DNA of 32,000 nucleotides, taken from positions 15,558 through 47,557 of the forward strand of contig CAZKBG010000002.1 of assembly GCA_964551375.1 (NCBI GenBank). Reading direction: 5' to 3'. Positions 28,537 to 32,000 of this stretch are shown piece after piece. Position numbers and translations under genes: made by a program. Below the pieces are notes generated by a model. It saw nothing but the letters and a program-made list of their open reading frames with translations. It had not been told where the DNA came from and did no database searches. Numbering within the stretch: position 1 is the first letter of the stretch; each line of letters opens with the position of its first letter. The DNA is from an uncultured archaeon (GTDB taxonomy: Archaea > Iainarchaeota > Iainarchaeia > Iainarchaeales > JAAZKV01).

Positions 28537-30441
28537 ATGGTACAAAAAATAAAAATATTAGATGATATAAACGAAACAGTAAAAAGACTAGTTCCCGGAA
28601 GCGCAGGAATAACAAAAATTGAAATGGAAGGGCCTGAAGTAGTTATTTACACAAAAAGCCCGGAAGCATTTTTCGGCGTTGAAAATTATGTTTCAAAAAT
28701 TGCATTTGAACTTAAAAAAAGAGTTAACATAAGAACAGACAAATCCCTGCTTTCAAACCCAGAACAGGCAAAGAAAAAAATACTTGAGCTTGTTCCAAAA
28801 GAAGCAGAGGTAAGAGATGTTTATTTTGAAGAGCCTTTCAGCGAAGTTGTAATTGAAGCGGTGAAAAAAGGGCTTGTAATCGGAAAAGGCGGAGAATTAT
28901 CCAAAAGAATAATAATGGAAACCGGATGGACTCCAAGAATATTAAGAGCTCCGACAACAAAATCAGAAATACTTAACGGAATAAGAAAACATTTATTCAA
29001 GCACGCTGATGAAAGAAAAAAATTCTTATTAAAAACAGCTGAAAAGATTTACGGCGATAAAAGAGAATCAAACCACAAGTGGATACGCTTAATCGCTCTT
29101 GGCGGGTATAGAGAAGTTGGAAGAAGCTGCATGCTTTTAGAAACAGAAAACACAAAAGTTCTTCTTGATGCGGGATTAAACCACAGCTCTGATGATCCAT
29201 ATCCTTACATTGACGCTTTAGGATATCCGTTAAGCGAACTTGACGCAATTGTAATATCGCACGCGCACTCAGACCACACAGGAACTCTTCCTTTCTTATT
29301 CAAAATGGGGTATGACGGGCCTGTGTACTGCACTGAACCTACAAGAGACTTAATGACACTGCTTCAGTTTGACTTTTTGGACGTGAGCGTATCGCAGGAA
29401 AAAACTGCGCCTTATTCAGAAGCTGATGTAAAAAACACATTAATGCACACAATAACAAGAGACTATCGTGAAGTGACTGACATTGCTCCGGATATGAGAC
29501 TAACTCTTCACAACGCATCGCACATTTTAGGCTCTGCTTCGGTTCACTTAAATATAGGCGAAGGAGCGCACAACTTGGTTTACGGCGCGGACATAAAATT
29601 CGGCGCGACAAGATTATTTGACAATATTGACATTAAGTATCCAAGAATGGAAACACTTATTGTTGAAAGCACATACGGCTCAAAAGACGCAATACAAATG
29701 CCTAGACAAGCCGCTGAAAATAAATTAATTGAAATAATTCAGGAGACAACTCAATTCGGCGGAAATGTATTAATTCCTGTATTTGGAGTTGGAAGAGGAC
29801 AGGAAATATGCATGGTAATTGAAGATGCTTATAAGAAAGGACTTCTTTCTGAAAAGAACAGCATTTACGTTGAAGGAATGGTAAAAGAAGCAAGCGCAAT
29901 ACACACAGCGTACCCTGAATATTTAAGACAGAGCCTTGAAAAGAGAATTTTGACAAATGATTCTCCGTTTGATTCTCCAATATTTAAGGAAGTTAAAAAA
30001 GAAGACAGGGAAAAAATCTGCAACGGAAGCGGGAACGTAATATTATCCACTTCAGGAATGATGAACGGCGGTCCTGTGATAGAATACTTCTACAAAATGG
30101 CTGAAAACCCCGCAAATACTTTGGTGTTTGTTGGTTACCTTGCTGAAGGAACATTCGGAAGAAAAATACAACAGGGACTAAAGAGCATGCCAATAAGCGA
30201 TAATGGCAAAACAAAAAAACTTGATGTTAAAATGAGAATTGAAACAATAGACGGATTCAGCGGACACGCTGATTTCAACGAGCTTGTATCATACGTTGCA
30301 TCGCTAAAGCCAAAGCCAAAAAAAATACTGGTAAACCACGGCGACCCGACAAGAAGCGTTGAGTTTTCAAAATACTGCGCGGCAAAATTCGGAATAAGCA
30401 GCTCAGCTATTAGAAACCTTGAAGCAGTAAGATTCAAGTAA
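28537..30441 (+). CDS. fttA: Archaeal CPSF1-type beta-CASP ribonuclease (KH domains, metallo-beta-lactamase, beta-CASP); transcription termination factor aCPSF1/FttA
   Basis: The 634-aa length fits. The N-terminal KH region includes 'ITKIEMEGPEVVIYTKSPEAFFG' and 'GLVIGKGGE'. The MBL motif is 'ISHAHSDHTG', followed by a C-terminal beta-CASP region ending '...GFSGHADFNELVSYV...LVNHGD'. Confidence 0.9.
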   Translation: MVQKIKILDDINETVKRLVPGSAGITKIEMEGPEVVIYTKSPEAFFGVENYVSKIAFELKKRVNIRTDKSLLSNPEQAKKKILELVPKEAEVRDVYFEEPFSEVVIEAVKKGLVIGKGGELSKRIIMETGWTPRILRAPTTKSEILNGIRKHLFKHADERKKFLLKTAEKIYGDKRESNHKWIRLIALGGYREVGRSCMLLETENTKVLLDAGLNHSSDDPYPYIDALGYPLSELDAIVISHAHSDHTGTLPFLFKMGYDGPVYCTEPTRDLMTLLQFDFLDVSVSQEKTAPYSEADVKNTLMHTITRDYREVTDIAPDMRLTLHNASHILGSASVHLNIGEGAHNLVYGADIKFGATRLFDNIDIKYPRMETLIVESTYGSKDAIQMPRQAAENKLIEIIQETTQFGGNVLIPVFGVGRGQEICMVIEDAYKKGLLSEKNSIYVEGMVKEASAIHTAYPEYLRQSLEKRILTNDSPFDSPIFKEVKKEDREKICNGSGNVILSTSGMMNGGPVIEYFYKMAENPANTLVFVGYLAEGTFGRKIQQGLKSMPISDNGKTKKLDVKMRIETIDGFSGHADFNELVSYVASLKPKPKKILVNHGDPTRSVEFSKYCAAKFGISSSAIRNLEAVRFK

Positions 30442-30476
30442 GAGCTTTGAGAAAAAGCAATCCTGATTAATTTGTT

Positions 30477-30510
30477 TTGCAGCAAAAAATGCTGCAAAAA
30501 TATTTTTTTG
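30477..30510 (+). terminator. Hairpin plus oligo-T downstream of aCPSF1
   Basis: 'ttgcagca-aaaaa-tgctgcaa' has 8-bp perfect arms (30477-30497). It is followed by 'aaatattttttt'. Confidence 0.5.
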
Positions 30511-30579
30511 CCAAAGTCTTGCTTTTAGCATCAACAAAGCTGGTTTTAAATATCAGTTTGATGCTATGATTCAATTAGC

Positions 30580-31257
30580 ATGGTTTTTTTAGATAAGTTT
30601 GACAAGTTGCTTTTATTATTTCTAGTTTTTGTGGTAGGAATATTTTTTGCCACGGCGGTAGATATCGACCCAAACATTCCAAGCCATCAATTCTCGCAGA
30701 TTGCGGTTGGAGTGGAGAGAGTGGTGAATGACAATAATATTTTGTTAGCAAAATTCGGGGGAACAGGCGTAGCAACATGCCCTGACGGAACTGTTTTGAT
30801 TTGGAATAATGTTTCTGGAACTTGGATTTGCGGAAGCGGAGTTCCAGGACCGCAAGGTCCTGCAGGCGTTCAAGGTCCGCAAGGACCAGTTGGTGCGACA
30901 GGCGCAACAGGCCCTACAGGATATGCTGGAGCTACTGGTCCTCCTGGTCCGCAAGGAGCTCAAGGCCCTACTGGACCAATTGGTCCAAACGGCGCTACTG
31001 GCCCTGCCGGTCCAACAGGCGCGACAGGAGCACGGGGACCAACAGGAGCTACTGGCCCTGCCGGTCCAATGGGTTCGCCAACTTTTTGCTATTATGAAGG
31101 AGTAGCGTGGGGAATTGGGATGTCTTGCTTTGCGGGAAATCAATCTCCGGCTGCAACAACATCTTATGGAAATCTTATCCAATGTACAACAGGCGGATGG
31201 ACAAGCGGCTCAAGGGTATACGGTCCCGGAGGATACACAGCATATCCAATATGCTGA
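30580..31257 (+). CDS. Collagen-like (GXY repeat) secreted/anchored protein, paralog 1
   Basis: The N-terminal hydrophobic segment is '[18 protein letters not shown]'. A conserved head domain contains '...[27 protein letters not shown]'. 26 uninterrupted G-X-Y triplets span 30838-31074 ('[28 protein letters not shown]...'). The C-terminal domain has 4 Cys and ends 'YPIC'. Confidence 0.85.
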
Positions 31258-31305
31258 TATTAAAATTAAAAATTAAAAGTATTATTTATAGTGTTGGTTA
31301 TTTTT

Positions 31306-31995
31306 ATGGCAATGTTTGGAAATTTTAGCAAAATCGTTCTGATTTTTTTTGTGCTTGTGCTAAGCGTAGTATTTGTCGTTTCGACTGATGTGGTTATATC
31401 AAAACCTTATCATCAGTTTTCTGCAATAGCTGTCGGGATTGAAAAAGTTGCAGACAACAGCAATATACTTTTGGCAAAGTTTGGAGGAACAGGGCTGGTT
31501 AATTGCCCTGACAAAAATGTTTTGGTTTGGAATAATGTTTCAGGCACTTGGATTTGCGGAAATCCTCCTGCAGGAGTGCAGGGGCCTATGGGTCCGCAGG
31601 GGCCAGCGGGCATAGCAGGTCCGCAAGGACCAGTTGGCGCGACAGGCGCTACTGGAGCTAACGGCGCAACAGGTCCTCCAGGCGCCACAGGAGCAAGAGG
31701 ACCAACAGGTCCTGCAAATACCACTACTGGTCCACAAGGGCCAAAGGGATCTACTGGTGCAACAGGCGCTGCAGGTCCTGCTGGTGCAACAGGTCCGCAA
31801 GGCCCGGCGTTAGTAAGAGTAACATGCACTTACAATGGAAGACTTTACAGTCCAGGAGCAAAATGTTTTACAGGAAGCTGTCCTATTGCTACTACAAGCT
31901 CGGGACAATTAATTACCTGCAACTCCAACGGGACTTGGAGTTCGCCGACAACAGTATACGGCTGGGGAAATTCATGCCAGTATTCAATATGTTAA
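31306..31995 (+). CDS. Collagen-like (GXY repeat) secreted/anchored protein, paralog 2
   Basis: Architecture and head/tail motifs match paralog 1 ('[13 protein letters not shown]...[32 protein letters not shown]', tail ending 'YSIC'). The G-X-Y tract spans 31573-31809 with one interruption ('[10 protein letters not shown]'). The ORF is open from GTG 31291. I prefer ATG 31306 by alignment with paralog 1. The stop is 5 nt before the window end. Confidence 0.85.
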
Positions 31996-32000
31996 TATTT

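Follow-up and report, generated by a model that had tools for sequence, protein, structure and literature searches.

Two adjacent genes at the end of a 32,000-nucleotide stretch of archaeal DNA (contig 2 of genome G000, G000:C2:15558-47557; hereafter the window) encode short collagen-like proteins, and a third such gene follows directly outside it. Judged by sequence, the three genes belong to a lineage-restricted family in which a common N-terminal leader and head is combined with interchangeable stalks and tips. We propose that the trio, together with a fourth collagen-bearing paralog on contig 1, encodes exported proteins that would form cell-surface fibres with a conserved base, a collagen stalk and an adhesive tip, and we put the probability of this reading at roughly 0.6. 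The structure of the genes, the family they belong to, its distribution, the pattern of conservation and the history within the genome are established.

The host is an Iainarchaeota/Diapherotrites archaeon (DPANN group) with a genome of 1.09 Mb (10 contigs, 93% complete, 38% GC). The archaeal setting named in the initial annotation, a reading of the window's letters by a model, is borne out by the gene for aCPSF1 upstream of the array, by thermosome and guanylate kinase genes beside a sister cluster on contig 1, and by the relatives of the head, which are labelled Candidatus Diapherotrites or Candidatus Iainarchaeum metagenome-assembled genomes.

Paralog 1 (P0001, 225 aa, 30580..31257) and paralog 2 (P0003, 229 aa, 31306..31995) both lie on the forward strand and were delimited from the open reading frame (ORF) list, matches to Pfam PF01391 (Collagen) and alignments of the paralogs (paralog 1) or of the family (paralog 2). 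For paralog 2, the family alignment and the database gene call favour the ATG at 31306; the GTG at 31291 is an unlikely alternative. The proteins are 52% identical over their full length (E 6e-59) and share the layout described in the initial annotation, with the ORFs where it had placed them: a leader, a head of ~60 aa, a Gly-X-Y stalk and a Cys-rich tail of ~58 aa. Its suggestion that the array continues beyond the window also holds. Extension of the contig places paralog 3 (230 aa, 26 triplets; G000:C2:47647-48339, window-equivalent 32090-32782) 95 nt after paralog 2, so that the window closes on the start of a 94-nt spacer (31996..32000, forward strand). Paralogs 1, 2 and 3 score 56.7, 41.5 and 48.1 bits against PF01391 (gathering cut-off 27.2), and a Pfam scan of paralogs 1 and 2 at E <= 1 gave no domain besides Collagen.

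Leader, head and family distribution

The leader of paralog 1 (30580..30657, forward strand; alignments A1 and A5) consists of a conserved F-D-K followed by an 18-residue hydrophobic helix that ends in A-T-A|V. Across paralogs 1 and 2 this helix measures 16-18 residues and is followed by small residues at -3 and -1. In paralog 1 the 19-residue Kyte-Doolittle mean reaches 2.7 and AlphaFold places a helix at residues 6-25. These features would suit either a Sec signal peptide or an uncleaved signal-anchor.

The head of paralog 1 (aa 27-86, 30658..30837, forward strand) was delimited by the invariant columns of the family alignment, which in paralog 1 numbering include P34, H36, F38, G44, E46, L55, K58 and GGT60-62. 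It ends in a disulfide-type hairpin, C67..L73.W75..W82.C84. The signature of the family comprises an F-D-K leader, a hydrophobic helix, P-x-H-x-F..Q-I, L-L-A-K-[FY]-G-G-T-G and the hairpin C..L.W..W.C. All 18 invariant columns of leader and head (18/18) are present in paralogs 1-3, which match the family profile at E 1e-43 to 1e-46. The head found no match in Pfam, NCBIfam, PHROG or the sequences of the PDB.

When 1.84 billion cluster representatives were searched exhaustively by HMMER with the profile of the head, 102 matched, only ~25 of them over the whole head. The others cover only its final ~22 residues, the Cys-stapled hairpin, of which giant and mostly bacterial proteins with signal peptides contain up to 21 copies; one of these giants also matches the Bdellovibrio MAT fibre structures 8on4 and 8ond. 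The hairpin, 'C.DG.VL.W.....W.C', corresponds to head residues 60-86 (30757-30837 and 31483-31563 in the window) and is a widespread repeat in its own right (P0016-P0104); the Pfam scans made here matched no model to it. Some phage-like proteins (PHROG 9627, 38058) have variants of it that lack the Cys residues. The complete head is far more restricted: within the genus it is present in 9 of 21 genomes, and the 19 other genera of the order gave no match. The leader alone occurs in 12 of 215 sampled genomes of the phylum and, barring a single weak match, in one family only. A word-index search with the head recovered one outside relative; a scan of metagenome contigs gave none, and the head profile matched nothing in 2.9 million viral contigs.

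Outside G000 the relatives carry the same leader and usually the same head, joined to 1-4 Cys-hairpins and assorted Cys-rich domains. One of them, P0015, combines the same head with 14 Gly-X-Y triplets and a different Cys-rich tail. In P0098 the leader is joined to a phage tail-collar and Gp10_C tip (PHROG E 1e-29), and among P0098, P0036, P0062, P0086 and P0092 the FSKFDK leader and the P-x-H..QQ(I/V) start of the head are fused to a DxDxDG calcium-loop-like segment. Because of these fusions we regard the leader as a portable cassette that is independent of the rest of the head.

Contig 1 of the same genome holds four more leader and head genes, which encode proteins of 285, 259, 450 and 276 aa and form a cluster whose synteny is shared by two other species (G004, G017). 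The 285-aa protein has three extra hairpins (C..GQVLKW..G..W.C) and a different Cys-rich end. The 259-aa protein has two hairpins, 16 Gly-X-Y triplets and a tail of the array type. This wider modular family, and the fact that the trio is specific to G000, had escaped the initial annotation. Beside the contig-1 cluster, both G000 (C1:416080-417273) and G004 (L030:1458-2642) encode a Cys-rich protein of 395-397 aa that has a signal at its N-terminus and a membrane helix at its C-terminus.

The paralogs have been separate for a long time. Depending on region and pair, their nucleotide identity is 39-69% and the synonymous divergence (dS) exceeds 1 or is incalculable. Since dS is saturated, we consider the duplications old and not homogenised. 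Recent tandem duplication or gene conversion was rejected on the low nucleotide identity (47-69%) and the saturated dS. Non-synonymous divergence (dN) between paralogs is lowest in the head (0.26-0.42), 0.34-0.39 in the collagen tract (tandem trio only) and highest in the tail (0.59-0.92). The head is thus the most and the tail the least constrained region, although the tail retains a scaffold of Cys, Gly and Trp.

Collagen stalk and Cys-rich tail

The tract of paralog 1 (residues 87-167, 30838..31080, forward strand; Pfam and tract count) comprises 27 unbroken Gly-X-Y triplets (26 plus a terminal GSP). Paralog 2 has 16 + 9 triplets (31573..31809, forward strand; tract count) on either side of an 'NTTT' break in the register (31717..31728, forward strand), and paralog 3 has 26. 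The tract coordinates first reported for paralogs 1 and 2 stand. In paralog 1 the X position is taken by Pro (15) or Ala (8) and the Y position by Thr (10), Gln (5) or Ala (4), and a single residue is charged. Over all tracts, X is occupied by Pro (~55%) or Ala and Y by Thr (~40%), Gln or Ala, and each tract holds 1-2 charged residues; KGE and KGD triplets are absent from the tracts. Counted as Y-Gly-X, the triplets QGP, TGP and TGA together make up 46%. This composition matches the triplets that are reported to be over-represented in archaeal collagen-like proteins (TGA, TGP and QGP, versus TGA and TGP in bacterial and viral ones; PMC11923368).

The tracts stand out as islands of 63-66% GC in a genome of 38% GC, as the initial annotation had noticed. 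The GC content at third codon positions (GC3) within them is only 0.24-0.32, AT-biased like the remaining genes of the host, so the islands stem from the codons for Gly, Pro, Ala and Thr. The long ORFs in other frames over the tracts are, as had been supposed, by-products of the repeat.

The initial annotation had tied the collagen-like assignment to conservation of the Gly-X-Y register in orthologs. In the G004 ortholog of the contig-1 collagen paralog the register is held, with 14 triplets against 16, and among the paralogs Gly persists at every third position over 25-27 triplets despite the saturation of synonymous sites. Between the last Cys of the head and the first Cys of the tail, paralogs 1, 2 and 3 likewise have similar numbers of residues (85, 89 and 88). 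The rise of a collagen triple helix is 0.286 nm per residue, so a stalk of 81 residues would be about 23 nm long if triple-helical.

Within the tracts, exact in-frame direct repeats were noted in paralog 1 (22 nt, spaced 54 nt apart, 30994-31069) and paralog 3 (31 nt, spaced 117 nt apart, window-equivalent 32379-32526), which could mediate the gain or loss of 18 or 39 stalk codons. Slippage-prone perfect repeats were looked for in the tracts and rejected; the 22-nt and 31-nt repeats are the only exact in-frame ones present. The NTTT break of paralog 2 contains an N-T-T sequon and is a candidate N-glycosylation site; an AglB/STT3 homolog is encoded in the genome.

Elsewhere in the phylum PF01391 is sporadic (11 of 215 genomes, 8 of 79 genera), as a rule in small, secreted, unrelated proteins. 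A giant archaeal collagen-like protein, in a 2,579-aa open frame with over 25 separate PF01391 matches, is encoded in another genus of Iainarchaeota (G169:C9:39353-45415, L031). Three further genomes (G098, G182 and G128; L034, L039 and L040) encode small signal-peptide or lipobox proteins of 148-211 aa with 10-13 Gly-X-Y triplets and unrelated C-terminal globular domains; in two of them a coiled-coil-like segment, 'LQNQINNI(Q/E)L', lies right ahead of the collagen tract.

The tail of paralog 1 (aa 168-225, 31081..31254, forward strand; alignments A2 and A4) contains 4 Cys and ends in ...YPIC. That of paralog 2 (aa 169-229, 31810..31992, forward strand) contains 6 Cys by residue count (174, 187, 192, 205, 224 and 229). 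The initial annotation was correct in counting 4 for paralog 1, and its count of 5 for paralog 2 is to be amended. Paralog 1 lacks exactly two of the six, the equivalents of 192 and 224, which suggests that Cys192 and Cys224 of paralog 2 form a disulfide pair. The tail found no match in Pfam, NCBIfam, PHROG or the PDB sequences and is a near-orphan. Among 151 genomes of the order it occurs in four copies in G000 and one in G002, and word-index searches with two different tails returned self matches only. An archaeosortase/exosortase substrate of PGF-CTERM type was considered and rejected: the C-termini are Cys-rich and polar, with no sorting motif, helix or basic tail.

Proposed function and related systems

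In the model that we favour, the N-terminal leader would take each chain across the membrane via the Sec route, and either the leader, retained as an anchor, or the ~60-aa head would hold the fibre at the envelope. By the sequence rules of collagen, the 25-27 Gly-X-Y triplets of three chains would then wind into an unhydroxylated, Thr/Gln/Pro-rich triple helix of ~23 nm. The fast-evolving, disulfide-stapled tail of ~58 aa would form the contact or binding tip at the far end. With the same base and different stalks and tips, the family would work like the MAT fibres of Bdellovibrio, the BclA nap or phage tail fibres.

BclA of the Bacillus anthracis/cereus exosporium nap resembles the trio in several respects: its N-terminal targeting region is short, its Gly-X-Y stalk is rich in Thr and free of hydroxyproline, the tip is C-terminal, and the number of triplets differs among relatives (in our case 14 versus 16). 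Its globular tip is, however, a C1q/TNF-like trimer of ~130 aa, whereas the ~58-aa Cys-rich tail matches neither C1q nor any other Pfam domain. There is no sequence relation outside Gly-X-Y, and in our case the host is archaeal and the base consists of a hydrophobic leader and a novel head. In the MAT (mosaic adhesive trimer) fibres of Bdellovibrio bacteriovorus, an invariant base domain lies right behind the signal peptide and the tips can be swapped (Caulton et al., 2024; PMC10769870). Like the present family they are multi-copy, with an invariant base behind an export signal and variable stalk and tip modules; they differ in having a base of ~130 aa, in being beta-rich trimers of 500-1,100+ aa, and in that many carry an S74 chaperone, whereas the trio proteins have 225-230 aa, a collagen stalk and no S74. 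The head profile matched no PDB chain, although the MAT base is described as a predicted domain (PMC10769870) and may lie outside the solved chains. By analogy, the likeness to MAT fibres is one of design, not of membership.

Streptococcal Scl1/Scl2 and Legionella Lcl are prokaryotic surface adhesins whose collagen stalk is trimeric and, as predicted for the trio, free of hydroxyproline. The NCBIfam models NF038330, NF038329 and NF046116 align to the tract, at 43-57 bits against cut-offs of 325-500 and over Gly-X-Y only. Scl has the opposite polarity, with a C-terminal LPXTG anchor and an N-terminal variable tip, whereas the proteins described here end in ...IC or ...FC and have neither LPXTG nor a C-terminal helix. 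Scl stalks are also charge-rich, in contrast to the 1-2 charged residues per tract. In MARCO and SR-A a membrane helix at the N-terminus is followed by a collagen stalk and, at the C-terminus, by a small Cys-rich domain, but these proteins are eukaryotic and bear hydroxyproline. The resemblance in layout to MARCO/SR-A, and to C1q in its three tandem genes and collagen regions of ~80 residues, is analogy only, with no sequence or detectable fold relation.

Several observations weigh against the fibre model. Export, trimerisation and surface location are predictions from sequence, and the proteins contain no recognised trimerisation domain. The tracts are nearly charge-free, Pro makes up only 26-34%, and no prolyl hydroxylase (P4H-type dioxygenase) was found in the 93%-complete genome; for a stable helix the proteins would therefore have to rely on their Thr residues, which may be glycosylated, and on the end domains. 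The head family is mostly collagen-free, and head and tail each occur without collagen. The G002 tail follows non-collagen repeats in a 349-aa protein, and the earlier idea that the Cys-rich tail nucleates the trimer is unsupported. An anoxic habitat may make disulfides difficult to maintain, and the trio was found in G000 alone. Structure prediction adds little: AlphaFold2 gave a predicted local distance difference test (pLDDT) score of 53.7 for full-length paralog 2 (12 sequences), with 34-50 over the collagen tract, and 57.6 for the tail alone (5 sequences). A Foldseek search of the PDB with a low-confidence model gave no usable match (best E 2.8). In the full-length model the tail is the best part, with blocks at pLDDT 77-82, and these poor monomer models hint at a leader helix and at Cys-closed beta-hairpins, both for the hairpin of the head and where the tail begins.

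The proteins could instead be structural parts of an envelope or matrix (a nap, a sheath or an S-layer-linked spacer of fixed distance) and not partner-binding adhesins, which we regard as unlikely. The conserved stalk length would suit such a role, BclA-type Thr-rich collagens do form a structural nap, and the tail has no recognisable lectin or binding fold. Yet a core envelope part would hardly be missing at the same locus in the closest relatives, as the trio is, and it is the distal tail that evolves fastest, with tips swapped between relatives, a pattern typical of recognition modules.

A different arrangement, in which the three chains co-assemble into one C1q-like A-B-C heterotrimer instead of separate homotrimeric fibres, appears somewhat less likely still. 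C1q has collagen regions of ~81 residues and three tandem chain genes. The paralogs here are adjacent, co-oriented and old, yet their stalks are matched (85, 89 and 88 residues) where the contig-1 paralog has only 16 triplets, and the tail of paralog 1 lacks exactly one putative Cys pair. On the other hand, each gene appears to have its own AT-rich, promoter-like spacer, the tracts offer almost no charged residues to set a chain register, and in a mixed helix the one-residue break of register, which only paralog 2 has, would cause strain. Lone collagen chains are moreover viable, as the single-copy paralog on contig 1 and P0015 indicate. The more specific version, an obligate C1q-style A-B-C heterotrimer shown on the cell by the new leader and head as a sorting and anchoring cassette and acting as a strain-specific host-recognition fibre, is more doubtful again. 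If true, it would be the first heterotrimeric collagen outside eukaryotes and would give a handle on partner choice by DPANN archaea.

Collagen-like proteins have been studied thoroughly in bacteria, phages and giant viruses; to our knowledge, archaeal ones appear in database surveys only and none has been characterised. In 2015 the collagen-like entries of Pfam numbered 14 from archaea against 2,554 from bacteria (PMC4565658), and the archaeal proteins have been included in a bulk analysis of composition (PMC11923368). At 225-230 aa, with the stalk between two novel domains, the proteins are compact and should be easy expression targets, suited to testing how a hydroxyproline-free, charge-poor, Thr/Gln-rich triple helix folds and from which end it nucleates. 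The family, and the G000-specific trio with it, are candidates for attachment and partner recognition in Iainarchaeota, a DPANN group whose cell-cell contacts are poorly understood, and offer a parallel to the modular fibres of predatory Bdellovibrio.

Locus history and neighbouring genes

On its left the array is bounded by the gene for an aCPSF1-type KH/beta-CASP RNase (28537..30441, forward strand; ORF), whose orthologs in five relatives are 79-97% identical, and on its right by a convergent gene for a T2SSE/FlaI-type ATPase of 767 aa (C2:48377-50680, reverse strand), which adjoins paralog 3. In the relatives G004 (aCPSF1 90-97% identical), G002 and G019, the genes for aCPSF1 and the long ATPase lie side by side and converge, at a distance of ~60-170 nt, and in G016 two other ORFs lie between them; none of the four junctions contains collagen genes. 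Homology between G000 and G004 ends at the aCPSF1 stop codon (30441) and restarts at about window-equivalent 32812, the 3' end of the ATPase gene. From this break we read the array as a 2.4-kb block of three already-diverged genes that was either inserted in this lineage or lost cleanly elsewhere. Since its GC3 is native and contig 1 also carries paralogs, the block more probably arose within the lineage than came from a distant donor. The intergenic DNA cannot be aligned with G004, and no target-site duplication could be defined at the ends of the insert. As the relatives have the aCPSF1-ATPase junction without the array, the adjacency of paralog 3 and the ATPase is, on this comparison, incidental.

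Upstream of paralog 1 lies an AT-rich spacer (30442..30579, forward strand; GC 0.31) with a TATA-like motif, TTTAAATA, at 30545-52, ~31 nt ahead of the ATG. This spacer, for which no alignment with the G004 intergenic region was possible, is likely to be the promoter of paralog 1. The spacer between paralogs 1 and 2 (31258..31305, forward strand) has 10% GC and TATA-like A/T runs and is a likely promoter of paralog 2.

The insertion relative to four related genomes could be taken to mean that the genes are virus-derived, coding for tail fibres or virion parts in a provirus or its remnant. PHROG tail-fibre families do score up to 5e-23, and family members elsewhere carry the phage tail-collar/Gp10_C tip. 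Phage collagen-like tail fibres (PHROG 819, 6320, 5073, 366 and 1806) indeed have a Gly-X-Y tract of similar composition. Most PHROG matches are nevertheless essentially confined to that tract, and a few weaker ones reach slightly into head or tail, so that homology of head or tail is not established. The insert consists of three genes only, set between two housekeeping-type genes with no phage genes around them; the head profile is unmatched in the viral contigs; the chromosome carries four paralogs next to a thermosome gene, in a cluster whose synteny extends across species; and GC3 is like that of the host. The initial annotation had pointed to confident tail-fibre homology inside a prophage as grounds for reclassifying the genes. 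We found no convincing homology outside the collagen tract, and the aCPSF1 and ATPase flanks are syntenic in relatives. The idea of a provirus was rejected on context, synteny and codon bias, and we consider a viral origin highly improbable.

Least credible of all is that the proteins are pilin-like subunits assembled by the neighbouring FlaI/VirB11-type ATPase: although the 767-aa T2SSE ATPase abuts paralog 3, the contig-1 cluster lies ~5 kb from a type IV pilus operon and the genome encodes 7 such ATPases and 2 prepilin peptidases, we reject this reading because the adjacency is incidental (the aCPSF1-ATPase junction is ancestral and collagen-free in G004, G002 and G019), the ATPase gene is convergent and not co-transcribed, and the leaders (M..F..FDK and helix) have no class III signal '[KR]GQ(G/T)T(I/V)E', where the organism's own pilins read KKGQGTIEY..., and no match to PF07790 (Pilin_N).

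The type IV pilus-like operon near the contig-1 head-family cluster (G000:C1:420637-431133, ~5 kb away) encodes an 802-aa ATPase, two TadB/C-like membrane proteins and several pilin-like proteins with a KGQ(G/T)T(I/V)E class III signal. In total the genome has 7 T2SSE ATPases and 2 prepilin peptidases of the A24 family.

To the right of the array (G000:C2:48377-60440), genes for a T2SSE-type ATPase (767-802 aa), an exosortase-like membrane protein (~213-239 aa) and a giant surface protein of ~2,900 aa form a set of three that is kept beside aCPSF1 in G000, G002, G016 and G019 (L061, L062, L063). The membrane protein next to the array, of 213 aa, is weakly exosortase-like (PF09721, E 0.0066), and the set may serve to export or anchor the giant protein.

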